This document shows positions 37,851 to 59,696 of a stretch of 64,000 nucleotides of DNA, piece after piece. The position numbers were made by a program, and so were the translations under genes. Position 1 is the first letter of the stretch. Each line of letters begins with the position of its first letter. The stretch is from NCBI GenBank assembly GCA_945868215.1, contig CAMBLN010000001.1, positions 5,424-69,423 of the forward strand, read 5' to 3'. This DNA is from Opitutus sp. GAS368. GTDB taxonomy: Bacteria; Verrucomicrobiota; Verrucomicrobiia; Opitutales; Opitutaceae. The notes beneath the pieces are model-generated. The model searched no databases. It was not told the DNA's origin and was given only the letters and a program-made list of their open reading frames with translations.

Positions 37851-39452
37851 ATGTCCGAACCCGTTCCCCCCTCTTCCCCCGACGCACCCGCATCGAAACG
37901 TTCCCTTTACCTGACGATCACCCGAAGCCTGCCGCTCCTCATCACGGTCATCGTTCACGTCATCATTCTGCTGATTGCCGGCGTATTTATCGTGCAGGAA
38001 CAGATCATCGGCAAAAAAAAGGTTCTCCAAGCCGCGCCTCCGCCGGATTCATCCGCGCAGAAACAGGTCGAGCACCGGCTTCAAGTCGCCCGTCGTGGCG
38101 GCGCTTCCGGGGCCTCCGGTTCGCCCATCGAGGTTGACCGCATTTTCTCCACCAACTCCGATGCGCTGCAAATGCCCGCGCTTCCCGATCTCCCTTCGGT
38201 TGGCGGCCCCGGTGGCTGGGGCGGTTTCGGTGGCAACGGTGCCGGTGTCGGTCTCGGCGCGGGTGCCGGCATGGCGACTTCCCTCGGTGCAGGCGCCGGT
38301 CTCGGCGGACGCGGCTTCATGTCGATGTCGTTCCTCGGCATCACCGATCAGAACGTCCAGAACGTCGTCTTCATCATCGACGCGAGCGCAAGGATGATGG
38401 ACCTCCGCAAGAGCGGTTTCCGCGCCTTCGAAATCATCCGCGATCAAATCGGTTCGCTCATCGGCCGCCTCCCGCCCGCCGCCAAGTTCAACGTCATCCT
38501 CTACGGCAACTCCTGGAACGCCCACTCCGACGTGAATCCCTTCCGCACCGAACTCGTCGCTGCCACCACCGAAAACAAAGAGGCCTTCTTCGCGTGGATG
38601 AAACCGGTGAACCTCAACTACGAAAAGATCGGGCCGGCGTCCGCGGCCACGTTCACTCCGTGGAAACCCAAACCGCTTCCCGACGGTTACGGTTTTGATC
38701 GCACGATAGGCCGCATGAACCGACTCGCCTCGCTCATTCAGGCAGGAATCGAGCAACAACCCGACACCATTTTCCTCATCACCGGCGATGTGGATGGCCG
38801 CGCAGGCTGGCGCGCGCCGCCTTCCGCCGAATTGATCCGCCGCCACCGCGCCCAATGGGACGAACGCGGAGATGACCGCCGCAAAGGAATGATCGAATAC
38901 GAGAAGGCCGTGGCGGAGCTCGCCCGCCGGGGAGTCACCCCCGAATCGATGGAACGCGCCCGCTCCGCTGCGAGCAAAAAAGCCGTCGCCGATCTCGCCG
39001 AAGCCAACCGGAAACTCGTCGCCGCCGGCAAACAGCCCGTGGTCAACATCGGCGGTCTGCGTGACATCCAAGGCCGCCAGTCCGAGCTGAAAAAAGCCGG
39101 CGTCAACATCTCCATCGATGGTCGCGGTTGGCTCGTGGACAACGAGGGCAAGCCCATCAATCTGCCCAACAAACCCGACATCACCTACAAAGCCCCCAAC
39201 AAGGAGGACTTCGGCTGGTCCGAGGTTCATCTCCACATCAACCGGCTCCAGCGCGCGTTCACCCCGAAGAAGGTCGCCGTCACCACCATGCTCTTCGTCG
39301 GTCCCGATGATAGCGAAGAAAAGGTGGAACAATGGAGCGAACCCTTGCGCGAGATCTCCAAACGCAACGACGGCAAGTTCCAGGTCATCACCACCAAACG
39401 CCTCGAAGAGATCATCAAAGCCCAGAACGCCGCGCCCGGCGGCAAATCCTAA
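37851..39452 (+). CDS. Membrane-anchored protein with a TonB/TolA-like anchor, Gly/Pro linker and vWA-like domain
   Basis: TM segment [14 protein letters not shown] (T/SxxxH as in TonB anchors), a Gly-rich linker, then [12 protein letters not shown]...FNVILY...[10 protein letters not shown] vWA-like strands. Confidence 0.7.
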
Positions 39453-39472
39453 AACCCAACGTCCTCGTTTCC

Positions 39473-40603
39473 ATGGCCACGGTCTCCCTTGAAAATCTCA
39501 CCAAAGTTTACGCCGAAAACAAGGGTTCCGGCGTGAAGGTTGTCCATGGCATCGACCTGGAAATCCGCGACCGCGAATTCATGGTCTTCGTCGGCCCCTC
39601 CGGCTGCGGCAAATCGACCACGCTGCGCATGATCGCGGGCCTCGAGGAAATCTCCGGCGGCACCATCTCCATCGACGGCAAAGTCGTGAACAACGTCCTG
39701 CCCAAGGACCGCGACATCGCCATGGTCTTCCAAAACTACGCGCTCTACCCGCACATGTCGGTTTACGACAACATGGCCTTTGGCCTGAAGCTGCGCAAAT
39801 TCCCCAAGGCCGAGATCGACCGTCGCGTGCGCGAAGCCTCCGCCTTGCTCGGTCTCGACGATTATCTCGCCCGCAAACCCAAGGCGCTCTCCGGCGGTCA
39901 ACGCCAGCGCGTCGCCGTCGGCCGCGCCATCGTCCGCCAGCCCAAGGTGTTCCTCTTCGACGAACCGCTTTCCAATCTCGACGCCAAAATGCGTGTCTCC
40001 ACCCGCACCGAGATTTCCAAGCTCCACGACCGTCTCGACGCGACCATGATCTACGTCACCCACGACCAGGTGGAGGCCATGACCATGGGCGACCGCATCT
40101 GCGTCATGAAGGACGGACACATCCTCCAGGTCGCCACCCCGCTCGAACTCTACAACCGCCCGGCCAATGTCTTCGTCGGCGGCTTCATCGGCAGCCCGCC
40201 CATGAATTTCTTTCGCGGCACGCTGCGCTCCGAGGGCGGTCGTATCCAGTTCACGGAGACCAACGCACCGGGCGCTCCCGTCGTGCTCACGCTCGACGAA
40301 CGTCTCGCCCGCGCCGGCGCCGCCCACGTGGGCCGGCCGGTCGTCTTCGGCATAAGACCCGAAAACGTAAGCGACTCCCGCACGCTCGCCAGTCCCGAAC
40401 CCTCCGTCTCCGCGCGCGTGCGCGTCGACGTCGTCGAGCCGATGGGGGCCGAGACCCATCTCTTCCTCGACACCGGCGCCACCGCCTTCATCACCCGCGT
40501 AGACCCCACGCGCTCCTACGCCGTCGGCGAAATGTTGTCCGTCACGTTCGACTTGGCCAGCGCCCATCTCTTCGACGGCGAGACCGAGGCCGTTTTGAAC
40601 TGA
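39473..40603 (+). CDS. Carbohydrate ABC transporter ATP-binding subunit (MalK/MsmX/UgpC family)
   Basis: GPSGCGKST Walker A, LSGGQRQR signature, [12 protein letters not shown]-terminal TOBE/regulatory domain. Start ATG at 39473. Confidence 0.95.
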
Positions 40604-40624: not shown

Positions 40625-42478
40625 ATGCCCGCCTCCCTCGTCTGGCTTCACTCCGACCGCCGCGCGGTCCTCTCGTCCGCCGTCGATGCGAACACCCCCG
40701 CGTGGCGCGCCCATTTGCTCGCCGCCGTCGCGCGCGAGACCGACCCGGCCGGCTCTTCCGAGATGAGCCGCCACGGCGACGGGGCGGTGCAACTTGCCTT
40801 GCGCGGCCTCACCCGGGGCGACGCCGCGCTCGCCGCCTCGGCCGTCAATCTTTGGCTTGGCGGACTCGACGGCATCGAGAAAAACAACGATCTCGGCAAA
40901 GCCCACCTGGCCCTCGACGCCGCCATCCTCTACGACGCCGCGTCCGCACTCTGGCCGGCGGAGACCCTCGCCGCCTGGCAACGCGGTGTGCTGCGGCTCA
41001 TCTCGGCGTTTTTCACCATCAGCCCGGGCAACCCCCACCACATCGTCAACAACTGGTGGGCCGTCACTCACTCCGGGCTTTACTGCGCCGTCGTCGCGCT
41101 GCGCGACTCGGGCATCGATGCCGCCGTCCCCGCCACCGGCCGCACGCTCGCACAGATCGAGTCATGGGCCTGGGGTCGCCTCGATGCGTTCCTCGGCCAC
41201 TTCGGCGAGACGGGCGCCTACCACGAGGGTCTGGGTTATCAGGACTACACGTGCTGCTACCTGCTCGCCGCCGCCCGTCTGCATGAAAACCGCGTCGGCA
41301 CCGCCCTCGCCAACCGCTTCCCCGGCCTCGCCCGCATGGCCGCGCTGATTTTCTCCACCGGCATCGAGGGCCCCGCCCGCAACGACTCCACCGGCGTGCG
41401 CGCCGGCTGGGGCCGCCAGCTCAGCTGGAACGACGCCGGTCTCGGCTGGCCCGACAGCGCCACGCCGCTGCTCGCCCTCGGCTGGGCGGAACCCGCTTTT
41501 CAACCCGCCCTTCGCGACCGCTGGGACCGGCTCTCCGGGCACCTGCGGCCCGACGGACACTCCTCATCTCGTTTCGGAGCGTTGTTTTTCCAACTCGCCC
41601 TTTATCCGGAATTGTCCGCGCCCTCCGCCACCGCCGCCCCGCTGCCGCTTTCCGTGTGCGACCGGCGGCAGGGTTTCTGGTTCACGCGCGATGCCTACGC
41701 CGGCCCCGCCGATGTCGTGCTAGGTGCCTACGCGCGCTGCACCCACCCCGGCGGACACTCCCAGCACGACGCCGGCTCGTTCCGCTTCTCGGCCCTAGGA
41801 TGGGACTGGGTTCTCGGCGGCGGCCAGGCCCGGCCCGAGGCCGGGTGGCAAAGCGTGGTGACCTCCTCCGGCGAGCAGTCCAAAAAAGCCCCGACCGGCT
41901 CCGTCCTGTGGGCGGGCGAACGTGTATTCGGAATGGAACTACGCAGCGTCCACCAAGGCTACGGGGAACGCTACCTCGCGTTTCATCCCGCGGGCCCCGC
42001 CGCCGTCGCCTTGCTCGACTTGATCGACGACCACCGCGACGACCGCGAATGGCGCTGGAACCTCACGTTCTCACCGGAACTCACCTGCACGTTCACCCCC
42101 GGCGGTTTCGTCCTGCTCGCCCCCGACGGCGCCCGGCTCATCGCATCTTTTCTCGGCGATCAACCGGTCTCGTTCGAGCTCGCCCATTCTCCGTCAAGCC
42201 GGCGCACGTTCGCCAATGGCAACATCGTCGACTACTCTTCGCGGCCGTGCGTCGTGGCCCGTTGTCCTCTCCGCAGCTCGCTCGCTCTCTACGTGGTGCT
42301 CACCGTGCACGCCCCCGGTGCCGACCTGCCACCGGCCACGTTGATTCCGGGCCAGGGTCTCTCAGTCGCGTGGGGCGACCAGGTCTGGTCGCAGCCTTTT
42401 GGAGACGCCTTACCCGCCACCGCCACGCCTGCTCTCCTGCGGTGCCAAAGCCCGTATCCCGCCCCCCTTTCCCAGTGA
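40625..42478 (+). CDS. Heparinase II/III-like (alpha/alpha-toroid + beta-sandwich) polysaccharide lyase-like protein
   Basis: NNWWAV, YHEGLGYQDY and GGHSQHDAGSF motifs. No signal peptide. Confidence 0.6.
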   Translation: MPASLVWLHSDRRAVLSSAVDANTPAWRAHLLAAVARETDPAGSSEMSRHGDGAVQLALRGLTRGDAALAASAVNLWLGGLDGIEKNNDLGKAHLALDAAILYDAASALWPAETLAAWQRGVLRLISAFFTISPGNPHHIVNNWWAVTHSGLYCAVVALRDSGIDAAVPATGRTLAQIESWAWGRLDAFLGHFGETGAYHEGLGYQDYTCCYLLAAARLHENRVGTALANRFPGLARMAALIFSTGIEGPARNDSTGVRAGWGRQLSWNDAGLGWPDSATPLLALGWAEPAFQPALRDRWDRLSGHLRPDGHSSSRFGALFFQLALYPELSAPSATAAPLPLSVCDRRQGFWFTRDAYAGPADVVLGAYARCTHPGGHSQHDAGSFRFSALGWDWVLGGGQARPEAGWQSVVTSSGEQSKKAPTGSVLWAGERVFGMELRSVHQGYGERYLAFHPAGPAAVALLDLIDDHRDDREWRWNLTFSPELTCTFTPGGFVLLAPDGARLIASFLGDQPVSFELAHSPSSRRTFANGNIVDYSSRPCVVARCPLRSSLALYVVLTVHAPGADLPPATLIPGQGLSVAWGDQVWSQPFGDALPATATPALLRCQSPYPAPLSQ

Positions 42479-45219
42479 GTATTGTCCAAAACTTCTTCTC
42501 GTCACAAATCCTTCGCGTATCGCTGGCCATTGCCGCCACCTTGTGTGCGCTCCCGCCCACGCAGGGCGAACCCGTCGCGGCTCCCGACGCACCCGCCGTC
42601 ATACGCGTAACCGGATACACGCCTTGGGCCTGGAGTCCTCCTAGCCGCGCGCGCCGCGCCGCATTCCAACACTTCATGTCCGAAGTCGTCGATCCGGCGA
42701 CCGGTCGACCTTGGGGCGAGCTCATCCGCATCGAGGCCGACAACCCCCTCAGCTTCCCCGGTTTCAGCCTCAAGATCCTCAACTTCGCCGCCGGCACCGG
42801 CGAGGAGGTCGTCGCCACCAGCACCGGCATCACCCAGTTTTACCAATACCGCGACCAACGCTTCCTCCTTCCCCTCAACCCCTTCATCTGGGAAATCAAC
42901 CGCGACGCCAAAGGTCGCCCCCTCCGCCTCCCCGACGGCTCGTGGGATTACGTTGCCGGTCCCGACGACGGCCGCGTCCTCCTCTGGCCCGATTGGAAAA
43001 ACCTGGCCCCCGCCTACCGCGAAATGGTCCAGTGGCGCGGCGACCTCTACGGCCTCCCCATCAGCAGCTCCGCCAACGGCCTGCTCTTCCGCCGCGATGC
43101 CTTCACTTCCGCCGGGCTCGACCCCGACCACCCGCCCGCCACGTGGGACGAATTTCTCGACGCCTGCCTGCGCATCTCCGCCCTCTCCACACCCGAATTC
43201 CCCGTCTTCGGTATACAACTCAACGCCAGCGTCATAGAAAGCTACCTGCTCGGCCTCGGCGGCAACCTCGCCCGTTCCGAGACCACGCCCGACGGCTCCA
43301 CCCGCTGGCTCTCCAGCGTCGCCTCGTCCGAAATGATCCGCACCGTCGAGTTCATCCGCCGTCTCACCCTCACGCGCTGGATCATCGACGACCAAGGCCG
43401 CCCCTTTGTCGTCCACCTACCCGACGCCCCTGCCGACTTGGTTCACCCTACCCTCGGCGAAGGCCGCTGGGAGGGCGCGCCCTACGCCGCCGGCTCCCGC
43501 TTCACCTTCCCCGGCCGCACCTACGCCGCCAACGAAATCCGCACCGGCATGGCCTTCAACCAACTGGGCGGCCAAGCCACCGAGGGAAACGTCAAATGGT
43601 ATAACCTCTTCACCGAACAAAAACCCCGCATCGGCATGTCGCTCAACACCCCCGAGCGCTTCGGCGATTTCCTCGCGGCCTTCGACCCCGATCTACTCGA
43701 CTTCGCCCCCGCTCCCGCCGGCCCCGCCGGTCGGGGAGTCTTCGCCCAGGGCGACATCGCCGGCCTCAACTACCGCCTCGCCGACGACCCCGCCACCGCC
43801 CGCCTCGCCTGGAACGTGCTCAGCTACCTCGCCAGCTCCGACTACAAAACCCAGATAGTCCACAGCTACGCCCGCGAAGGCGAAGGCATCGCCGAGACCA
43901 TCGCCCCCCGCCTCCTCGTCGCCAACGGCTACGATACCATCGCCGAACGCGTTTCCCCCTCCCTGCGCGAATACTGGGCCGGCCTCGACGACGCCGTCCG
44001 TCCCGTCATCCCCGCCAAAAACTTCCAGGCCATCACCCAGCAATACCTCAACCCCCTCTTCCGCGAGGCCTCCCTCAACCCCGCCTTCGACTACCGCAAC
44101 GCCCTCGCCGCCGCCCAGGAACAAATCCAGGCACGCCTCGATTTCGCCGCCGGCGACTACTCACGCGTAAAACACCGCGGCCTCGTCGTCGTCGCCATGG
44201 TCGTGATCATCGCCGGCGTCCTCATCGCCACCCTCTACGCCATCCGCTCCATGCTCCATAAAGCGGCCGCGTCCACCGGTGTCACCACCCTCGGCCCCAA
44301 CCCCCGCTACCAAGTCATGGCGTGGGCCCTCCTTTCTCCCGCCCTGCTTCTCATCTGCGTCTTCTCCTACTACCCCATCTTCAAGGCCCTCCCCGTCGCC
44401 TTCCAGGATTACAGCGTCACCGGCACCACCACCTGGGTCGGCACCGCCAATTTCGTCGAGATCTTCACCAACCCCGCCGCCTGGACCGCCCTCCTCAAGA
44501 CCGCCTACTACATGACCCTCAGCATCGGCTTCGGCTTTTTCGCCCCCGTCGTGCTCGCCATCCTGATGAACGAGATCCGCGCGTTCCGCTACTTCCTGCG
44601 CACCGTCTATTATCTGCCCGCGGTCATCGCCGGCATCGTCATGCTCCTGCTCTGGCAGCGCTTCTTCGAGCCCACCCCCAACGGCCTGGTCAACCAGATC
44701 TGGTTCGGCTGTATCCATATCTGGAATACAATCGCCCCCGCCTCTCTGGAGATCGCCCGTCAACCCGTGGACTGGCTCCGCCATCCGGTCTGGGGCATTC
44801 CCGCCGTCGTATTTGTCGGCGTCTGGGGCGGCATGGGGCCCGGCATGCTCATCTACCTCGCCGCCCTCAAGAGCATTCCCGAGGATCTCTACGAGGCCGC
44901 CGAACTCGACGGCGCCGGCTGGGGAGCCCGCTTCTATCACATCACCCTCTCCTACCTTCGCCCGTTGCTCGTCATCAACCTCATCGGTGCCGTCATCGGC
45001 GCCTTCCAGGCCTCCGGCAACATCCTCGCCCTCGCCGGCAACTTCCCCGCCACCTACACCTTCGCCGTCCACCTCTGGTTCGAGACCTTCGGCCTCGGCA
45101 ACTTCGGCGTCGGCACCGCCCTCTCCTGGGTCATGGCCGCCATCCTCATGGGCTTCACCCTCTGGCAGCTCCGCATCCTCCGCAACGTCGAGTTCCGCCG
45201 CTCCCAAGCCGACGACTGA
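42475..45219 (+). CDS. Fusion of extracellular solute-binding protein and sugar ABC permease (MalF-like)
   Basis: GTG at 42475 overlaps the upstream TGA. Signal peptide, SBP_bac_1-like motifs (LYGLPISSSANGLLFRRDAF...PPATWDEF), then a permease with the EAA loop SIPEDLYEAAELDGAG. 914 aa. Confidence 0.85.
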   Translation: MSIVQNFFSSQILRVSLAIAATLCALPPTQGEPVAAPDAPAVIRVTGYTPWAWSPPSRARRAAFQHFMSEVVDPATGRPWGELIRIEADNPLSFPGFSLKILNFAAGTGEEVVATSTGITQFYQYRDQRFLLPLNPFIWEINRDAKGRPLRLPDGSWDYVAGPDDGRVLLWPDWKNLAPAYREMVQWRGDLYGLPISSSANGLLFRRDAFTSAGLDPDHPPATWDEFLDACLRISALSTPEFPVFGIQLNASVIESYLLGLGGNLARSETTPDGSTRWLSSVASSEMIRTVEFIRRLTLTRWIIDDQGRPFVVHLPDAPADLVHPTLGEGRWEGAPYAAGSRFTFPGRTYAANEIRTGMAFNQLGGQATEGNVKWYNLFTEQKPRIGMSLNTPERFGDFLAAFDPDLLDFAPAPAGPAGRGVFAQGDIAGLNYRLADDPATARLAWNVLSYLASSDYKTQIVHSYAREGEGIAETIAPRLLVANGYDTIAERVSPSLREYWAGLDDAVRPVIPAKNFQAITQQYLNPLFREASLNPAFDYRNALAAAQEQIQARLDFAAGDYSRVKHRGLVVVAMVVIIAGVLIATLYAIRSMLHKAAASTGVTTLGPNPRYQVMAWALLSPALLLICVFSYYPIFKALPVAFQDYSVTGTTTWVGTANFVEIFTNPAAWTALLKTAYYMTLSIGFGFFAPVVLAILMNEIRAFRYFLRTVYYLPAVIAGIVMLLLWQRFFEPTPNGLVNQIWFGCIHIWNTIAPASLEIARQPVDWLRHPVWGIPAVVFVGVWGGMGPGMLIYLAALKSIPEDLYEAAELDGAGWGARFYHITLSYLRPLLVINLIGAVIGAFQASGNILALAGNFPATYTFAVHLWFETFGLGNFGVGTALSWVMAAILMGFTLWQLRILRNVEFRRSQADD

Positions 45220-45277: not shown

Positions 45278-47164
45278 GTGGCCATCATCTCCATCATCGA
45301 CCGCACAAACCCCAAAGGGCGCCTCGCCATGCTCGCCATCTACGCCGTGCTCTTCCTCGGCGCGATCAGCATGCTCTACCCGTTCCTGCTCATGCTCCGC
45401 ATGACCACGTCCGACCCCATCGACCAAACCTCCGTCTCCATCCTGCCGCGCTACCTCTGGGAGGAAAACATCTCCGCCCGTAAATACCTCCTCAAACAAT
45501 ATCGTCTCGTCCCGGCCCGGCAGCTCCCCGCCATCTACGGTGCCCGCGACTGGAGCAACCTAAACCAGGTCGAAGACTTTTACGACCGCCACCTCGCCCC
45601 CTTCGACGCCCTGCCGGCCGAGAAACTCGCCACCCGCATCGCCGACTACGAAGCCTTCAAGGCCCAGGCCGACCTGCTCCAGCTCTACCCCCTCGCCACC
45701 TACCGCCCCGACCAGTCCTTCGAGGATTTCTTCATCGTCAACTGGCTCGCCCGCCGCGAGGGCGTCTCCCCCAAGACCTACCAGTTCTACGAACCTATCC
45801 ACGCCGACTTCGCCCGCCGCGACTGGGTCCCCCCCTTCGATAAATCCTGGACCCAATGGCAGGACTGGCTCGCCCAGCTCCCGCCCTCCCAACGCCTCGC
45901 CGCCAGCGCCCACGCCCAATGGCAGGCCTACCTCGCCGAGAAATACCGCGGACAACTCCCCGCCCTTAACGCCGCCCACGCCACCGCGTATTCAGATTTC
46001 AACCACGGCCCTTGGTTCTCCCCCGAACCCCCCGCCCAAGCCTCCCCCGGCCTCCTCGCCGACTGGACCGACTTCGTCACTTCCCGCTACCCGCTCGTCT
46101 GGCAGAGCCTCCGTCCCTCCGCAGCCGAGACCGCCTCCGCCGACTGGCGCGACTACCTCGCCCAAAGCGTCGCCATCACCACCGCCGACGAATGGACCCG
46201 CCGCACCGGCCTCCCCGCCGACCAAGGCTACACCAACCTTCCTCTCGCCATGCCGCCCGACCAGGCCGCCGCCCGCTGGTGGAGCGCCTTCGTCGCCACC
46301 CGCATACCCGCCTCTGACCGCGTTATCACCTCACCCGAAGCCGACTTCACCGCCTTCCTCCGCACCCGCCACCCCGACCTCGCCTCCCTCAACGCCGCCT
46401 GGGGCACCGACTTCGCCACGTGGGACTCCATCCGCTTCCCCCAGGCCGAAGCCGACTACGCCGTCATCAAAACCCACGCCAACGGCATCCTCTGGGACAT
46501 CTCCCTCGGCAACTACCGCACCGTGTTCAAAGCCCTCGTCCTCGAAGGCCGCGCCTTCAGCAACACCGCGATCATCCTCGCCCTCTCCATCCTCACGTCC
46601 CTCACCGTCAACCCCATCGCCGCCTACGCCCTCTCCCGCTTTCGCGTCAAAGGCACCCAGAAGATCCTCATCTTCCTCCTCGCCACCCTCGCCCTCCCCG
46701 GCGAGGTCGCGATGGTCCCCGGCTTCCTCCTCGTCCGCGACCTCCATCTCATCGACACCTACTGGGCGCTTGTCCTGCCCACCGCCGCCAACGCCTTCAG
46801 CATCTTCCTGCTCAAAGGCTTTTTCGACTCGCTTCCCCAGGAACTCTACGAAGCCGCCCTCATCGACGGCGCCGGCGAGTTCACGCTTTTCACCCGCATC
46901 ACCATCCCGCTGTCGATGCCCATCCTCGCCGTCACGCTCCTCGGCACCGTGACCCACGCTTATAACATCTTCATGCCCGCCGTCATGTATCTGGGCGACA
47001 CCAACATGTGGCCCATCGCCACCAGTATCTATAGAATCGGGCAAACCTCCTCCGCCGGCGTGGGCATGGCTGCGCTCGTGGTCTCCTCGATTTTCCCGCT
47101 CCTCGTTTTCGTTTTCTGCCAACGCATCATCATGCGCGGCATCATTCTCCCCAGCATGAAATGA
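45278..47164 (+). CDS. Sugar ABC permease (MalG-like) with a large extracytoplasmic insert
   Basis: First TM segment ...MLYPFLLML, an insert of about 370 aa, then AAYALSRF and SLPQELYEAALIDGAG EAA loop. Confidence 0.88.
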   Translation: MAIISIIDRTNPKGRLAMLAIYAVLFLGAISMLYPFLLMLRMTTSDPIDQTSVSILPRYLWEENISARKYLLKQYRLVPARQLPAIYGARDWSNLNQVEDFYDRHLAPFDALPAEKLATRIADYEAFKAQADLLQLYPLATYRPDQSFEDFFIVNWLARREGVSPKTYQFYEPIHADFARRDWVPPFDKSWTQWQDWLAQLPPSQRLAASAHAQWQAYLAEKYRGQLPALNAAHATAYSDFNHGPWFSPEPPAQASPGLLADWTDFVTSRYPLVWQSLRPSAAETASADWRDYLAQSVAITTADEWTRRTGLPADQGYTNLPLAMPPDQAAARWWSAFVATRIPASDRVITSPEADFTAFLRTRHPDLASLNAAWGTDFATWDSIRFPQAEADYAVIKTHANGILWDISLGNYRTVFKALVLEGRAFSNTAIILALSILTSLTVNPIAAYALSRFRVKGTQKILIFLLATLALPGEVAMVPGFLLVRDLHLIDTYWALVLPTAANAFSIFLLKGFFDSLPQELYEAALIDGAGEFTLFTRITIPLSMPILAVTLLGTVTHAYNIFMPAVMYLGDTNMWPIATSIYRIGQTSSAGVGMAALVVSSIFPLLVFVFCQRIIMRGIILPSMK

Positions 47165-50522: not shown

Positions 50523-51922
50523 GCGACCACAACGTCCTCGATTACCAGGCCGTCGCCGACGGCCTCGCCGACGACGCCCCCGCCCTACAGCGCGCCATCG
50601 ACGCCGCCCACGCCGCCGGCGGCGGTCGCGTGGTCGTCCCCGCCGGCTCCCGCGTCCGCGCCGGCTCCTTCGAGCTCCGCTCCCGCGTGGAACTCCACGT
50701 CGCGCGCGGCGCCGTCCTCGTCTCCGCCACCACCCTCGAGGCCTTCCCTCGCCGCGTCTTCGATTCCGGCGACGAAGCCGATAAGCGCCTCTGGATCGGC
50801 GCGTCGCACGCCGAGGACATCACCCTCTCCGGCACCGGAGTGATCGACGGCCAGTGCCACGCCTTCGCCCTCGGCCAAAACGAACACATCTACACCCCCA
50901 CCCTCAAGTGGCGTCCCGCCCTCACTTGCTTCGAGGACGTCCGCCGCCTCGTCGTCCGCGACCTCACCTTCCGCAACGCCGCCAACTGGACCCTCCACTT
51001 CACCGGCTGCCAGGACGTCTCCGTCCACGACGTCAAAATCTTCAACGACCTCCGCTTCCCCAACGCCGACGGCATCGACCCCGACCACTGCCAGCGCGTC
51101 AACATCGCCCGCTGCCATATCGTCTCCGCCGACGACTGCATCGTCCTCAAAAACACCGCCCAGTTCACCCGCTACGGCCCCTGCGAGGACATCGACGTCT
51201 CCGACTGCCGTCTCGAATCCGTCTCCGCCGCCTTCAAGATCGGCTCCGAATCCCACGGCGATTTCCGCCGCATCCGTGTCCGCGATTGCGTTATCGAACG
51301 CTCCCACCGCGGCCTCGCCTTCCAACTCCGCGACGGCGGCTCCGTCGAGGACGTCGAGTTCCGCAACATCACCGTCAACACCCGCCGCTTCGCCCCCGTC
51401 TTCTGGGGCGCCGGCGAAGCCCTCTACGTCACCGCCCTCGCCCGCCTCCCCGGCGGCCCCGTTAGCGAGCTCCACAACATCCGCTTCCACGACATCCGCT
51501 GCTCCGGCGAAAACGGCGTCGTCATCTACTCCCAGGTTCCGGGCCGCATCCACGACGTCCTCCTCGAACGCGTGCACGTGGAAATCCTCCGCACCACCCC
51601 CTGGCCGTCCGGCCTCCTTGACCTTCGCCCCTGCCCGCCCGGATACCTGCCCCCCGGCGCTTCCCCCGCCGATGTATCCACTCCTTGGGGACAGCCCGCC
51701 CTGCGCCCGCCCTCCATGTTTTCAGTCGAGGGCGCCACGCACGTCGAGCTCCGCGAGGTGACGGCCACGGCCTCCACCCGCGACGATTTTTCCTGGGCCT
51801 GGCTGACCGCCGACCACCCCACCCGCGGTCAAGTGCTCGACTCCTCAACCGGCCAGATCCCCCCTCGCCCCTCGCCCTTTTCGGCATCCTTGGATCCCGC
51901 CTCTCTTACTCCGTCCTCGTGA
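50519..51922 (+). CDS. GH28-like glycoside hydrolase #2
   Basis: ATG at 50519 (ATGA overlap); LQRAIDAAHAAGGGRVVVP, NADGID, ADDCIVLKN, AFKIGSES. Confidence 0.82.
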   Translation: MSDHNVLDYQAVADGLADDAPALQRAIDAAHAAGGGRVVVPAGSRVRAGSFELRSRVELHVARGAVLVSATTLEAFPRRVFDSGDEADKRLWIGASHAEDITLSGTGVIDGQCHAFALGQNEHIYTPTLKWRPALTCFEDVRRLVVRDLTFRNAANWTLHFTGCQDVSVHDVKIFNDLRFPNADGIDPDHCQRVNIARCHIVSADDCIVLKNTAQFTRYGPCEDIDVSDCRLESVSAAFKIGSESHGDFRRIRVRDCVIERSHRGLAFQLRDGGSVEDVEFRNITVNTRRFAPVFWGAGEALYVTALARLPGGPVSELHNIRFHDIRCSGENGVVIYSQVPGRIHDVLLERVHVEILRTTPWPSGLLDLRPCPPGYLPPGASPADVSTPWGQPALRPPSMFSVEGATHVELREVTATASTRDDFSWAWLTADHPTRGQVLDSSTGQIPPRPSPFSASLDPASLTPSS

Positions 51923-54000
51923 ACCCCTCCGCCCCCCGCCTCGGCGCCCAGGTCTTCATCAACCGCACCGACACCCCCGGCCAGGTCGCCGCCCACTTCG
52001 CGACCCTCGCCGCCTCCGGCCTCCGCCTCGCCCGGCTCTTCGTCTTCTGGGATCACGTCAACCCGTCCCGTGACACGTGGATCTGGCACAACTACGACGC
52101 CGCCTTCGACGCCGCCGCCCGCCATGGCATCGGCGTCGTGCCCACCCTGTTCGCCCAATGCCCCCCCGGCTGGCTCCGCCTCACCCAAGGCAACCAATCC
52201 GTCGGCCCGCTCGAAAACCCCGCCCTCCGCGCCGCCTCTCTCGACTACGTCCGCCGCACCGTCTCCCGCTGGGCCGCCCACCCCGCCCTCGACTCCTGGA
52301 TCACATGGAACGAGGCCTCGCTCACCCTCCCGCGCGACAACTCCACCCTCCCGCTCTTTCAGGCGTGGCTGCGCACCCGTTACGCGGACGACATCAGCCG
52401 CTACAACCGCCAATACTACCGCCAGTTCGCCTCCTTCGCCGAGATCGACTTCGAGCCACTCAACCAGCTCTCCCCCATCCCCTCGCGCACCGAGACCGCC
52501 GACTGGATCGACTTCTCCGCCGACTACCTCGTCGCCAAGCTCCGCGAACTCAACGACGCGATCCGCGCCCTCGACGCGCACCACCCCGTCCACCTCAACC
52601 CCCACAACCTCCTCGAAGCCAAAACACTCCGCGCCGGCCAATCCATCTGGCGCGAAGCCGCCGCCTTCGACTTTCTCGGCTGCTCCCTCCACCCCGTCTG
52701 GCACTGCACGCGTTACCCCGCCCAACGCCGCCTCGACGCCGTCGCCCTCACCAACGACCTCATGCGCGCCGCCACCCCCGGGCCCGAACAACATTACTGG
52801 GTCTCCGAACTCCAGGGCGGCCCCGCCCTCCTCAGCGGCTTCGAACCCGGCACCCCCACCCCGCTCGATCTCCACGCCTGGCTCTGGGAATCACTCGGGG
52901 CCGGCGCCCGCGCCATCGTGTTCTGGTCCCTCAACGTCCGCACCGACGGCGGCGAGGGCGGCGAATGGGCCCTGCTTGACTGCCTCGGCCGCCCTTCCCG
53001 CCGCCTCCAAGCCGCGTCTCGCGTCGCCGCCTCCATCAATCGCCACGCCGCCCTGCTCGGCCCCGCCCGCCCGCCTTCCACCCCGATCAAAATCCTCCAC
53101 TCCGAAGCCACCTGGCGGCTCGGCCTCCTGGAAGGCTCCGACGAAACCCCCAACCTCCCGCGCAACCGCGAAGCCGCCGCCGACGCCCTCGGCGCCGCCC
53201 ACGCGCTCCTCGCCCCGCTCGGCCACGAAATCGGCTTCCTCGACGAGCCCGCCGTCCTCCGCCGCGCCTGGTTCGCCGATACCCGCCTCCTCGTCCTCCC
53301 CGGCTGCTACGTCCTTGAAGAGGGCACCCTCGCCGTCCTCCGCGACTTCGTCGCCCAGGGCGGCATCGTCGTCGCCGACGATCTCTGCGGCTGGAAAGAC
53401 CCCGCCGCTTGGGTGCGCCTCGGCCCCGCCGCCGAGCCCCACGCCGCCCTCTTCGGCGCCGACCTCGCCGACTACGAAGCCCACTCCGCCCCGCTCTCCC
53501 TCTCCCCGGAATCTTCCGCGCCCCTCGTCGGCTGGCTCGTTCGTGCCGACCTTGAACCCCGCCCCGACACCGGCACCACCGTCCTCGCCCGCTGGCCCGA
53601 CGGCCCCGCCGCCATCACCGCCCACGAACACCCGTCCGGCGGCTGCGCCTTGCGCCTCGGCACCCGCTTCTTCCAACCCGCCTTCACCGACCCCGTCGCC
53701 GCCAAAAACAACGGCACCTGGCTTCGCACTTGGCTCCGCTCCCGCCTCCCCGCCGCAAGCTTCACCCTTGCCGGCGCACCACCCGGCATCCGCCTCCGCC
53801 AACTCACCCACCCCGAGGGCACCCTCCTCATCGTCTACGACCCATCCGCCCGCGCCTCCACCTTTACCCTGTCCGCCCCGATGCCGGGGCTCTGGCGGCT
53901 GTCCTCCAGCTTACCGCCCTTCGCCACCGGCCAGTCCTGCCACGTCGAACTTTCCCCCCAAGAACCCGCCCTCGTTCTCTTTACCCCCCTCAACCCTTGA
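51919..54000 (+). CDS. GH42-like beta-galactosidase (clan GH-A) with trimerisation domain
   Basis: GTG at 51919 (GTGA overlap); WITWNE acid/base, FQAWLRTRY..., WVSELQGG nucleophile, LLVLPG trimerisation domain. Confidence 0.75.
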   Translation: MNPSAPRLGAQVFINRTDTPGQVAAHFATLAASGLRLARLFVFWDHVNPSRDTWIWHNYDAAFDAAARHGIGVVPTLFAQCPPGWLRLTQGNQSVGPLENPALRAASLDYVRRTVSRWAAHPALDSWITWNEASLTLPRDNSTLPLFQAWLRTRYADDISRYNRQYYRQFASFAEIDFEPLNQLSPIPSRTETADWIDFSADYLVAKLRELNDAIRALDAHHPVHLNPHNLLEAKTLRAGQSIWREAAAFDFLGCSLHPVWHCTRYPAQRRLDAVALTNDLMRAATPGPEQHYWVSELQGGPALLSGFEPGTPTPLDLHAWLWESLGAGARAIVFWSLNVRTDGGEGGEWALLDCLGRPSRRLQAASRVAASINRHAALLGPARPPSTPIKILHSEATWRLGLLEGSDETPNLPRNREAAADALGAAHALLAPLGHEIGFLDEPAVLRRAWFADTRLLVLPGCYVLEEGTLAVLRDFVAQGGIVVADDLCGWKDPAAWVRLGPAAEPHAALFGADLADYEAHSAPLSLSPESSAPLVGWLVRADLEPRPDTGTTVLARWPDGPAAITAHEHPSGGCALRLGTRFFQPAFTDPVAAKNNGTWLRTWLRSRLPAASFTLAGAPPGIRLRQLTHPEGTLLIVYDPSARASTFTLSAPMPGLWRLSSSLPPFATGQSCHVELSPQEPALVLFTPLNP

Positions 54001-56931: not shown

Positions 56932-59696
56932 ATGGATCACCCACGCAGCCACGCAGCCTCGCGCCTCGCGCCTCCCGCAACCTCAGCGCCGCCCTTCTCG
57001 GGGCGTTTCTCGCCCTCGGACCCGTCACCTACGCCGAACTCGTTCTGAGCACAGGCTTCAACGCCTTCACCACCTCCGCAGTCGACAGCATCAAGGTCAA
57101 CGGCGCCTTCGACTCTGGCGTCGCCCTGACCGGCGCCGGAAGCAACAACGCCTCACCCGCGGGCTTCTGGATCGTGCCCGACGCCGCGTCAGTAGACCTC
57201 GCCGGTCGCGCCCGCCTCGAGTTTCCCGCGGTTCTCACCGGCGGGGCGGCGTTTGCCTACGGCGACGCTTCCTTCGCCAACAGCCAGCTGAAGAAGGGCA
57301 CCATTTTCACCACCCGTGGCGATTTCACCCACGCCCTCGGAACCGTCACGGCGGTGATGCGCTACGGGACCGCAACGTCTCCAAATCGCGGATACGTTCA
57401 GATCGGCAACGCCTCGCTCCACGACGCCCGCTTCAACATTCCCTTTGAGATCAAGGCCGGCGCCTCACCCCGCTCCAACTGGTCCCTCTCCTTCCGCTAC
57501 GGCACCGGCGGCACCACCGCCCACACCTGGCACACCAACACCGCCGCCCAAAACGGCTCCGCCACCGCCGCCATTTATGCCGTCGACCCGGCCACCGGCG
57601 TCGTCGCCACCAGCCCGGCCGTGAGCTTCACCTCGGTGAATCTCGCCGGCGCCGGCCCCACCGCCGCGCTCTCCGCCCTCGATGCCGGGGCCGCCCTCGG
57701 CCCGGGCTCCTACGTTCTCAGCGTCCGGCTCTCCGGCAAGACCCTGAATCAGCGCTATACCTTCGACGACCTCGCCGTCTCGGCCGACTCCGGCCCAGTG
57801 GAGGTCATCCTCGACAACGCCGCCGCAACCGGCCTGACGCTCACCGGCTCTTGGACCACCGCCACCACCCCCTCGGGCTACTACGGCTCCGATTACCTCC
57901 ACGATGGCCTCGCCGGCAAAGGCGCAAAGTCCGTGACCTACGCCCCCGCCCTCCAAGCGGGCGTTTACGCCGTCAGCATCCGCTACCCCGCCGCCACCAA
58001 CCACGACGCCAACGTCCCCGTCGACATCGCCCACGCCCAGGGCACCGACTACGTCACTATCGACCAGACCACCGGCGGCGGCGACTGGATCCTGCTCGGC
58101 AATTACCGCTTCGATGCCGGCTCCACTGGCTCCGTCACCATCGGCACCGCCGGCACCACCGCCCTCGTCGTCGCCGACGCGGTGAAGTTCGCCCCCATCG
58201 GCGAACCCTCCGACGTCGAGGTCCTGGCCGACGGCCTCATCGACTGGCGCACCCCCGACGGCGACGGCATCTCCTGCGCCCAGTGCCACGGCCCCGCCGG
58301 CTACGACGTCGCCGTGTTCTCCTTCAACCAGACAGACCTCCGCCGCGCCACCGCACCCCACCTCGACGACGCCGCCGCCGACCGCATCTTCAAGATGATC
58401 GAGCTGCATCGCCGCAACTACCCGCCCGCCGATGGCCTCAAGGACGTCGCCACCTTCCGCCCCTTCCAGCCCACCGGCGTCGTCCTCGGCGGCGCCACCG
58501 CCACGCAGGAGGCCCGCGATGCCGCCTTCGGCAACCACGTCGCGAGCAACTTCCTCTACGGCTCCGGCCGCATCGACACTCTCGCCGAGGCCCAGGCCGC
58601 CCGCGACCAGCTCGTCGCCCTCGACATCGACTCCGTTCCCATCGGCATCTCCTTCAACCGCTGGTCCGAATCCGTCTCCCGCCAGGGCGCGCAGGACGGC
58701 GGCAAGATCTCCGAATGGCTCCCCGGCATCGGCCTCCAGGTCGTTGGCGCCAACGCCGCCGCCTTCGAGGCCCTCGAGGACGCCTACGTCGCCAACCCCA
58801 CCGACGCCAACTTCTGGGCCGTCTTCCACAAAATCGACGCCTGGACCACCCCCGACCCCCACAACGTCGGCCCCGTCCTCGACAGCCAGTGGGTTCGCAT
58901 GGCCAAGAGCCAGCTCAAGTCCAACCTCATCTTCCAACACGACGAGCTCTTGAAATCCCAGGGCATCACCGACTGGGTCACCGGCCGCACCACCGTGCGC
59001 CCCTTCCAGGACCAGGAAGGCAAGGGCAGCACCCTCTCCTTCATCTGGGACGTTGCCGACGCTGCCCGTATCGCGAAGAACACCCCCTTCGCCAACCTGC
59101 CGATGCGCCACCAGGGCTCGATGTTCATCGACTCCGCCAACACGGTTCCCTCCCAGATCAACCGCCTCCGCAATACTTGGTTCTACCTCGGCTGGACCGT
59201 TGATCACAGCCTCTTCTTCACCGGCCCCAGCAACCCGAGCCGCTCCGGCGAATACTTCATCGAGCAGCTCTGGACGGAGAACCTTCGCGCCCACCAGGTC
59301 TTCTTCAACACCGTGCACAACGTGAAGCGCGGTTTCCTGCCCGGCGGCTGGGCCACCGGCAACATGGGCGGCCCGGTCCAATACTACAGCTCCCAGAAAC
59401 CCTACTACCTCTCCTACAACAAGTATAAGAAGGGCACCGACGCCCCAGGCTATCCCGGCTCCGCCGCCACCTACAAGGCACAGCTCGCCAACAGCGTTCG
59501 CATGATGGCCCTGCTCCACGACCAGGACATCAAGGACAAGGGCAAGGTCTACGGCCCGGGCGGCAAGCCCGTCATCCTCACCCACGTCGAGACCATGCGC
59601 CAGGCGCTCGACTGGGCCGACCTCGCCAACAAGACCCAGAACGACGCCATCCTCGACGCCCTCATCGCCACGGTAAACGCGTATCCGATTCCCTGA
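56932..59696 (+). CDS. Secreted multidomain protein: beta-rich N-domain, Golvesin/xanthan-lyase-type CBM-like domain, c-type heme motif CAQCH, unknown helical domain. The 5' end is frameshifted relative to ATG 56932.
   Basis: The frame of ORF 57174..59696 is open back to 56859 and encodes a signal peptide (NLSAALLGAFLALGPVTYA) but has no ATG/GTG/TTG. Removing one 8-bp repeat unit puts ATG 56932 in frame (918 aa). CxxCH at 58275-58289. Confidence 0.7.
56941..56970 (+). repeat. Adjacent short tandem repeats (CCACGCAG)x2 (CCTCGCG)x2 in the 5' end of a gene
   Basis: Directly visible: 56941-56948/56949-56956 and 56957-56963/56964-56970. Confidence 0.85.

Follow-up and report, generated by a model that had tools for sequence, protein, structure and literature searches.

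A MalG-type ABC permease with a tandem-repeat domain, related to a segment of GH42 glycosidases, in its first periplasmic loop

INTRODUCTION

Why would a membrane subunit of an ATP-binding cassette (ABC) sugar importer carry a large hydrophilic insert whose sequence recalls a glycoside hydrolase? The question is raised by a gene at positions 45278 to 47164 of a 64,000-nucleotide stretch of DNA from Opitutus sp. GAS368 (GenBank assembly GCA_945868215.1, contig CAMBLN010000001.1, positions 5,424 to 69,423 of the forward strand); this whole stretch is referred to here as the window. A first reading, made from the letters of the window and its open reading frames (ORFs) and called the original prediction below, described the gene product as a MalG-type permease with an insert of ~370 amino acids that contains two Trp-rich modules originating in glycoside hydrolase family 42 (GH42). 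Here, we follow up this reading with profile searches, structure prediction, and a survey of related loci. The insert proves to be an array of five units, each homologous, as judged by profile comparison, to one segment of GH42 and related enzymes, and in most related loci the permease is paired with a second subunit to which a solute-binding protein is fused.

RESULTS

A MalG-type permease with an expanded first loop

The gene product is a MalG-type membrane subunit of a CUT1-type ABC sugar importer. The Pfam model BPD_transp_1 matches residues 454-621 (E value of 5.9e-11; 42.9 bits against a gathering cutoff of 26.4), and phmmer places the permease core nearest in sequence to AlgM2 (5.4e-18), SugB (4.5e-13), and MalG (1.2e-10). 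The NCBIfam models UgpE (2.1e-25), GlcU (1.4e-21), and MalG (2.5e-16) also match, all under their equivalog cutoffs. When a predicted model of the full-length protein was searched with Foldseek, ABC permeases were the only matches: MalG (3rlf_G; E value of 6.7e-7, probability of 1.0, and root mean square deviation of 3.3 Å over 209 columns), AlgM2 and SugB (E values of about 1e-6 and probability of 1.0), and, among the weak matches, OpuA. The Pfam and Foldseek results thus bear out the originally proposed permease type. The translation contains the EAA coupling motif YEAALIDGAGEFTLFTRITIPLSMP in a cytoplasmic loop, and residues E525, D530, G531, and P548 are invariant across the family. An ATPase, a second permease, and a binding protein are all encoded alongside. 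The gene begins with GTG, at a position shared by its homologues, which start with M(A/P)IIS, and its stop codon overlaps the start of a GH16 gene.

The N terminus can be placed in the cytoplasm on account of the basic residues R9, K13, and R15 ahead of the first transmembrane helix (TM1). Between this helix and the permease core, the translation runs through a hydrophilic stretch of ~380 residues, and ordinary MalG-type sequence picks up again only near residue 406, where the phmmer alignments begin. The extra ~360 to 380 residues, in line with the ~370 originally reported, therefore sit in the first periplasmic loop. In other words, this loop is expanded, directly after TM1, by a compact, noncatalytic domain of ~360 residues. 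Coordinates of all features are collected in Table 1.

The insert is an array of five units

Rather than the two modules of the original prediction, which was correct in placing a repeated element within the loop, the insert consists of five tandem units of ~70 residues. Both peptides on which the two-module reading was based, YLAEKYRGQLPALNAAHATAYSDF (residues 218-241; window positions 45929-46000) and FLRTRHPDLASLNAAWGTDFATWDSI (residues 360-385; 46355-46432), were found in the frame of the ORF, exactly where originally reported. A unit is laid out as helix A (f..fL...Y), helix B (l..LN.aWGT), a loop (sf.ei.lP...P), helix C (dW..Fv), and a short strand. For detection we relied mainly on A3, a 67-position profile built exclusively from permease repeats of other phyla, such that it contains no enzymes and not the window protein itself. 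As a hidden Markov model (HMM), A3 scores the window permease at 5.7e-27. Units 1, 2, and 4 are degenerate in this protein, in which only units 3 and 5, the two modules of the original prediction, are individually significant (unit 3, residues 210-278, independent E values [i-E] of 1.7e-13 with A3 and 9.3e-7 with the HMM m4; unit 5, residues 355-392, 9.8e-12 and 4e-21).

The degenerate units can be followed through relatives. Unit 1 aligns with copy 1 of relatives P0044, P0116, and others, in which it is significant (i-E down to 1e-9), units 2 and 4 likewise align with copies that are significant in relatives (copy 4 in the case of unit 4), and the LN helix of unit 2 is shorter in the verrucomicrobial clade. 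With a 43-column HMM of one unit, as many as five copies were located in a protein, around residues 65, 143, 215, 285, and 350; the repeat period is 63 to 79 residues, and the pattern is clearest in Armatimonadota-type members. Across 80 related genomic loci, the module was present in the target gene of every locus, with 3 to 5 detectable copies in 72 of them. Conservation across the family is highest in unit 5, the membrane-proximal one. As originally remarked, the loop is rich in Trp, which accounts for 4.7% of its residues, as do Tyr and Phe each. Family alignments show few invariant residues in the loop and no invariant Glu.

A predicted fold without a solved counterpart

AlphaFold2, supplied with 106 full-length homologues, modeled the permease with a predicted local distance difference test (pLDDT) score of 90.4 and a predicted template modeling (pTM) score of 0.85, with pLDDT values of 90 to 98 in the loop. 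The loop by itself, modeled from an independent 78-row alignment drawn from genomic loci, reached a pLDDT of 92.7 and a pTM of 0.91. The insert is thus predicted with high confidence to form one compact domain with a new fold. A helix-helix-helix-strand pattern recurs four to five times in the model, in the degenerate units as well, and the loop contains four strands of three residues each; as no other strands are available for pairing, these four probably form one small parallel sheet.

A comparison with known structures, which the original prediction had suggested as a check on the GH42 relationship, gave weak and local support. A Foldseek search of the loop model against the Protein Data Bank (PDB) returned nothing at an E value of ≤1e-3 (best E value of 1.9; TM-scores of at most 0.13). 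Nontrivial probabilities were obtained only where GH14, GH50, and GH35 enzymes matched over a short stretch; foremost was a weak GH35-type match to 6jow (54 columns; root mean square deviation of 2.3 Å; probability of 0.69; E value of 6.9). The enzyme families matched in this local manner coincide with those found by sequence. In these models, the unit resembles an enzyme segment locally, and the assembled domain is without a solved counterpart.

Each unit corresponds to one segment of TIM-barrel glycosidases

Profile comparisons show that every unit shares ancestry with the part of GH42 and allied TIM-barrel glycosidases that comes after barrel strand 4. Among PDB sequences, A3 matched the GH42 enzymes 4oif (3.7e-8; residues 169-230) and 1kwg (1.1e-7; residues 155-202), the GH35-like enzyme 7vkx (7.7e-7; residues 189-224), the GH14 beta-amylase 3voc (2.1e-6; residues 190-223), the GH50 agarase 4bq4 (5.2e-6; residues 520-572), and the GH167 enzyme 9whd (1e-4; residues 304-355). 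The GH35-like 6jow and the GH14 enzyme 1b90 are further enzymes with the segment. When A3 was compared by hhalign with the four module-bearing glycosidases of the window's genome (three GH42 enzymes and one GH50-like enzyme), the alignment covered 54 columns with a probability of 97.7% and an E value of 2.3e-12. The Pfam GH42 model PF02449 scores the window permease marginally (21.2 bits against a gathering score of 21; residues 354-391 aligned to profile positions 151-193) and matches 36 of 44 diverse homologues, at best with 4.7e-20 and in three separate stretches; a GH14 Pfam model likewise matches 6 of the 44. A chance or low-complexity match is ruled out by these three independent tests of significance (Pfam across homologues, A3 against the PDB, and hhalign). 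The profile comparison that had been proposed for the putative enzyme origin is therefore significant, and homology to GH42 stands, although the module is not specific to that family, as A3 matches GH35-like, GH50, GH14, and GH167 enzymes as well.

In the enzymes, the unit corresponds to the segment from after barrel strand 4 to the helix preceding strand 5. The "helical insert" of GH42 named in the original prediction is accordingly a connection of the TIM barrel itself, inclusive of the next barrel helix. The matched segment (residues 155-202 in 1kwg) does not cover the catalytic residues, which we take to be the acid/base Glu141 at the end of strand 4 and the nucleophile Glu312 on strand 7. 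Of the complete PF02449 catalytic (beta/alpha)8 domain of 376 positions, the window permease covers only 151-193 and its relatives cover, repeatedly, 148-217, and the GH42M domain (PF08532) was not detected by Pfam in the permease. The repeat domain is noncatalytic.

The window also encodes an intact enzyme with the module. An ORF at about 51904..54000 is a true GH42 enzyme, as originally proposed, with PF02449 (7.1e-22) and the GH42M trimerization domain; its peptide FQAWLRTRYADD..., which had been set beside the two permease peptides, was found at 52357-52446. In all, the genome holds one repeat permease and four other short matches, each of which is a lone module within a glycosidase ORF: three GH42 enzymes, including the one in the window, and a GH50-like enzyme. 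On another contig of the genome, a 715-residue ORF (L084:916-3060, minus strand) is a relative of GH50 beta-agarases (6xj9; 3.9e-119). Its partial PF02449 match (residues 485-593) is the module, and PF02449 thus cross-hits GH50 enzymes through the module.

The partner subunit is fused to a solute-binding protein

Directly upstream of the repeat permease, a single frame encodes a solute-binding protein joined to a UgpA/MalF-type permease (SBP_bac_1, 6.6e-10; BPD_transp_1, 7.1e-11). The binding protein measures ~590 residues and is connected to the permease part through an extra transmembrane helix. Because SBP_bac_1 covers only residues 88-221, the binding domain is both large and divergent. 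The membrane part (residues 595-887, about 300 residues) aligns nearly full-length to the NCBIfam UgpA model (positions 8-288 of 295) and therefore has no loop of the type known as P2 in MalF.

This arrangement recurs across the 80 related loci. Of these loci, 69 have a MalF-type gene immediately ahead of the repeat permease; in 65 of these 69, the upstream ORF has at least 800 residues, with at least 500 preceding the membrane part, and the other 4 are cut by contig ends. The upstream fusions measure 800 to 1,000 residues, and a partner HMM of 809 positions aligns to all 69, either over its full length or as far as the contig extends. Among the 11 loci lacking an upstream fusion, four have no upstream sequence, leaving 76 informative loci, of which 69 show the pairing. 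In one of the others, a metagenome-assembled genome (MAG) of Kiritimatiellae, an 871-residue ORF with the carbohydrate-binding family CBM4_9 (L034:5384-7996, plus strand) lies directly upstream of the repeat permease; similarity to permeases or solute-binding proteins was not detected in this ORF, and it may be an alternative partner.

No comparable conservation was seen for the other window genes queried, as neither the ATPase nor the GH16, EEP, GH28, GH42, ExbB, and vWA proteins nor ORF 40625 is a conserved neighbor across the 80 loci. We also considered, and rejected, that the permease might be functionally tied to the GH42 enzyme in the window: only 1 other module-bearing ORF was found in the flanks of the 80 loci, and blastp with the window GH42 enzyme finds no neighbor there.

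Distribution and variation of the family

A homologue search retrieved 467 relatives, all of about 600 to 790 residues, one of which bears the NCBI name "beta-galactosidase." In a collection with one genome per species, at least 570 loci were found in about ten diderm phyla. Taxa among the listed loci include Verrucomicrobiota, Lentisphaerota/Victivallales, Kiritimatiellota, Planctomycetota, Armatimonadota, and Cloacimonadota, as well as Firestonebacteria, Gemmatimonadaceae, Abditibacteriaceae, and a MAG labeled Chlamydiae. An exhaustive HMM search of 1.84 billion representative proteins yielded 267 clusters at an E value of ≤1e-30 and 547 at ≤1e-10, in which the domain starts nearly always at residue 41 and protein lengths extend to 979 residues. 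The number of units varies within the family from 5 to about 9: the longer members (P0128, P0154, P0186, P0241, G067:C1:38388-39980, and others) include proteins of 795 to 979 residues, whose overlapping domain matches imply seven to nine or more units.

Within the phylum of the window's genome, the repeat permease occurs in 40 of 151 sampled genomes and in 25 of 78 genera. It was absent from all 8 other sampled genomes of the window's own family, inclusive of one from the same genus, a patchy pattern that suggests horizontal acquisition or frequent loss. No account of the permease-repeat architecture turned up in literature searches, and NCBIfam contains no model for the loop.

Other features of the locus

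The importer genes stand in a locus that encodes a secreted GH16 enzyme and cytoplasmic GH28 and GH42 enzymes, and genes for ExbB and for a TonB-like/vWA protein lie upstream in the same gene run, which also includes the MalK-type ATPase. Between the ATPase and the fusion, a 617-residue ORF (40625-42478, plus strand) has no Pfam match at an E value of ≤0.01 and no blastp neighbor in the 80 related loci. An 840-residue ORF (57174-59696, plus strand) shows Golvesin_C (2.6e-32) at residues 211-339, with nothing else recognized. Between window positions 40000 and 60000, the GC skew of the plus strand ranges from -0.13 to -0.36 over the whole glycan-utilization block and is thus strongly negative, although the genes of the block are almost all on the plus strand.

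Table 1. Features of the importer locus and of the repeat permease in the window (AF2, AlphaFold2 model; aa, amino acids)
Feature	Window positions	Strand	Remarks
MalK-type ATPase, same gene run	39332..40603	+	ABC_tran 9.3e-32, OB_MalK, TOBE_2
Partner: solute-binding protein fused to UgpA/MalF-type permease	42520..45219	+	SBP_bac_1 + BPD_transp_1; ~899 aa counted from 42520
MalG-type ABC permease gene with repeat domain	45278..47164	+	628 aa; GTG start
TM1, residues 17-42	45326..45403	+	AF2 helix 12-42; sequence
Repeat unit 1, residues 63-138, degenerate	45464..45691	+	AF2 helices 63-74, 82-86, 114-130; strand 136-138
Repeat unit 2, residues 146-208, degenerate	45713..45901	+	AF2 helices 148-161, 165-168, 189-200; strand 206-208
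Repeat unit 3, residues 209-278, well kept	45902..46111	+	AF2 helices 211-222, 227-234, 257-269; strand 276-278
Repeat unit 4, residues 279-350, degenerate	46112..46327	+	AF2 helices 280-297, 303-310, 329-342; strand 348-350
Repeat unit 5, residues 351-400, without closing strand	46328..46477	+	AF2 helix A 353-364, helix B 368-375
Helix at base of first periplasmic loop, residues 401-425	46478..46552	+	AF2 helix 401-423; phmmer SugB alignment from residue 406
Permease core, residues 426-628, EAA motif YEAALIDGAGEF...ITIPL	46553..47161	+	BPD_transp_1, phmmer, Foldseek
Single module copy inside locus GH42 enzyme	52342..52515	+	A3 HMM i-E 3.8e-11, ORF residues 241-298

DISCUSSION

Comparison with known systems

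With the MalFGK2-MalE system of Escherichia coli, the importer has in common a MalG-type core with the EAA motif, a second permease as partner, and an ATPase of the MalK type that includes OB and TOBE domains; there the binding protein is free, whereas here it is covalently attached to the partner subunit. The role of the P2 loop of MalF is known from 2r6g and related structures. The repeat domain resembles P2 in being a large insert on the periplasmic side, in a loop of a permease and adjacent to where the binding protein docks. However, its place is between TM1 and TM2 in the MalG-type subunit, as opposed to TM3 and TM4 of MalF, and it comprises ~360 residues of helix-rich alpha/beta repeats in place of an immunoglobulin-like domain of ~180 residues. 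In OpuA and GlnPQ, a binding protein is also fused to the membrane subunit of a type I importer, but these systems are homodimers for amino acids or osmolytes, belong to other subfamilies, and have no accessory domain on their membrane subunit, whereas the present system is a heterodimeric CUT1 sugar importer with the repeat domain on its second subunit. AlgM1M2SS-AlgQ2 (4tqu) contains the closest solved sequence relative of the permease core, AlgM2, and handles cargo of oligo- or polysaccharide size; AlgM2, in contrast, has an ordinary short first loop and works with a free binding protein.

The units, for their part, share with GH42 (PF02449; 1kwg 155-202, 4oif 169-230) the motif F..WL...Y....LN.AWGT...f..i..P......DW..F. 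The enzyme contains one copy within an eight-stranded barrel that bears catalytic glutamates, whereas the permease has five to nine tandem copies and neither barrel, catalytic residues, nor trimerization domain.

A possible role of the repeat domain and its alternatives

We tentatively infer that the five-unit array in the first loop of the MalG-type subunit could well be a docking cradle for the tethered binding protein. According to this proposal, the repeat domain would lie over the periplasmic face of the transporter and act as a wall or cradle at which the large binding-protein domain tethered to the MalF/UgpA-type partner could dock, while itself neither binding nor cleaving sugar. Since the partner lacks a loop of the MalF-P2 type, the repeat domain would take over the role of P2, namely, holding the binding protein over the pore. 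Docking is favored by the conserved pairing with the fusion; the location of the insert in the periplasmic loop ahead of TM2 of the MalG-type subunit and the superior conservation of the membrane-proximal unit 5 also count for it. Several points weigh on the other side. A contact of the array with the binding protein is presumed from their co-occurrence, and the position of the domain relative to the pore from topology only. In seven loci, there is ample DNA upstream but no fusion nearby, the neighbors being, e.g., kinases, gyrase, the CBM4_9 protein, and a sulfatase; either the pairing has exceptions or, in these cases, the partner gene lies at another site. A correlation of binding-protein length with loop length (rho of 0.42; P of 0.0013) is discounted as weak evidence, being uncorrected for phylogeny and based on rough start sites, and the Trp-rich composition of the domain would also suit sugar binding.

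This last point leads to the main alternative, namely, that the array is a carbohydrate-binding surface whose conserved aromatics catch periplasmic oligosaccharides and feed them to the binding protein or the pore. The equal shares of Trp, Tyr, and Phe in the loop are compatible with such a surface, repeats are frequent among glycan binders, and the GH16, GH28, and GH42 enzymes of the locus make oligosaccharides the likely cargo. Yet the conserved aromatics occupy positions that are also conserved in the enzymes' copy, in the helical layer of the barrel, and are thus likely core residues; the five-residue "FWSxx" stretch of GH42 is missing from the permease units, no carbohydrate-binding module family or fold was matched (Pfam scan of 44 members; Foldseek), and the shortage of invariant loop residues also speaks against a binding surface. 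We regard glycan binding as rather unlikely. Still less probable, in our estimation, is a spacer or adaptor that reaches a different partner, such as a periplasmic enzyme of the locus (GH16 or EEP), peptidoglycan, or an outer-membrane or ExbBD-linked uptake component. The upstream ExbB and TonB-like/vWA genes, the confinement of the family to diderm phyla, and a unit number that varies as expected of a length-tunable element would fit an adaptor, but the fusion alone among the window genes queried is conserved across the 80 loci, and AlphaFold2 predicts a compact single domain (pTM of 0.91) rather than an extended rod.

A further alternative, concerning origin, is that the loop is a whole GH42 barrel (about 376 positions) inserted in the permease and decayed to a pseudoenzyme. 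The loop, at ~380 residues, is indeed near the length of the GH42 catalytic-domain model, and one member aligns to profile positions 148-261. Against this, separate parts of the family's proteins (at about residues 216, 256, 281, and 354) all map onto one PF02449 region, 148-217, the one-unit HMM finds its multiple copies per protein, and the AlphaFold2 model has four short strands instead of eight, with no TIM-barrel match (TM-score of at most 0.13). A decayed full barrel is excluded on these grounds, and we assign it a vanishingly small probability. A more far-reaching version of the docking proposal, which we put forward as speculative and rather doubtful as a whole, is that a fragment of a TIM barrel (the connection from strand 4 to strand 5) was captured by a transporter gene and amplified five- to ninefold into an autonomous alpha/beta repeat fold. 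With the tethered binding protein, this fold would enclose a self-contained vestibule on the periplasmic side of the pore, and the sugar importers so built would be a class of their own that extends across phyla.

Significance

The arrangement described here defines a previously unrecognized class of sugar ABC importers, in which one subunit carries a tethered binding protein and the other a repeat domain. Such importers are common among Planctomycetes-Verrucomicrobia-Chlamydiae (PVC) bacteria, Armatimonadota, Cloacimonadota, and other groups whose polysaccharide degradation does without SusCD systems. For annotation, it should be considered that the repeats lift permeases over the PF02449 gathering score (up to 72.7 bits in relatives), such that misannotated repeat permeases inflate counts of carbohydrate-active enzymes in metagenomes. 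The repeat domain also offers a clean natural case, relevant to protein evolution and design, of a TIM-barrel fragment reused and multiplied into a different fold. How heterodimeric importers deal with a tethered binding protein would be revealed by a dedicated model of the domain in combination with a structure of the whole complex.

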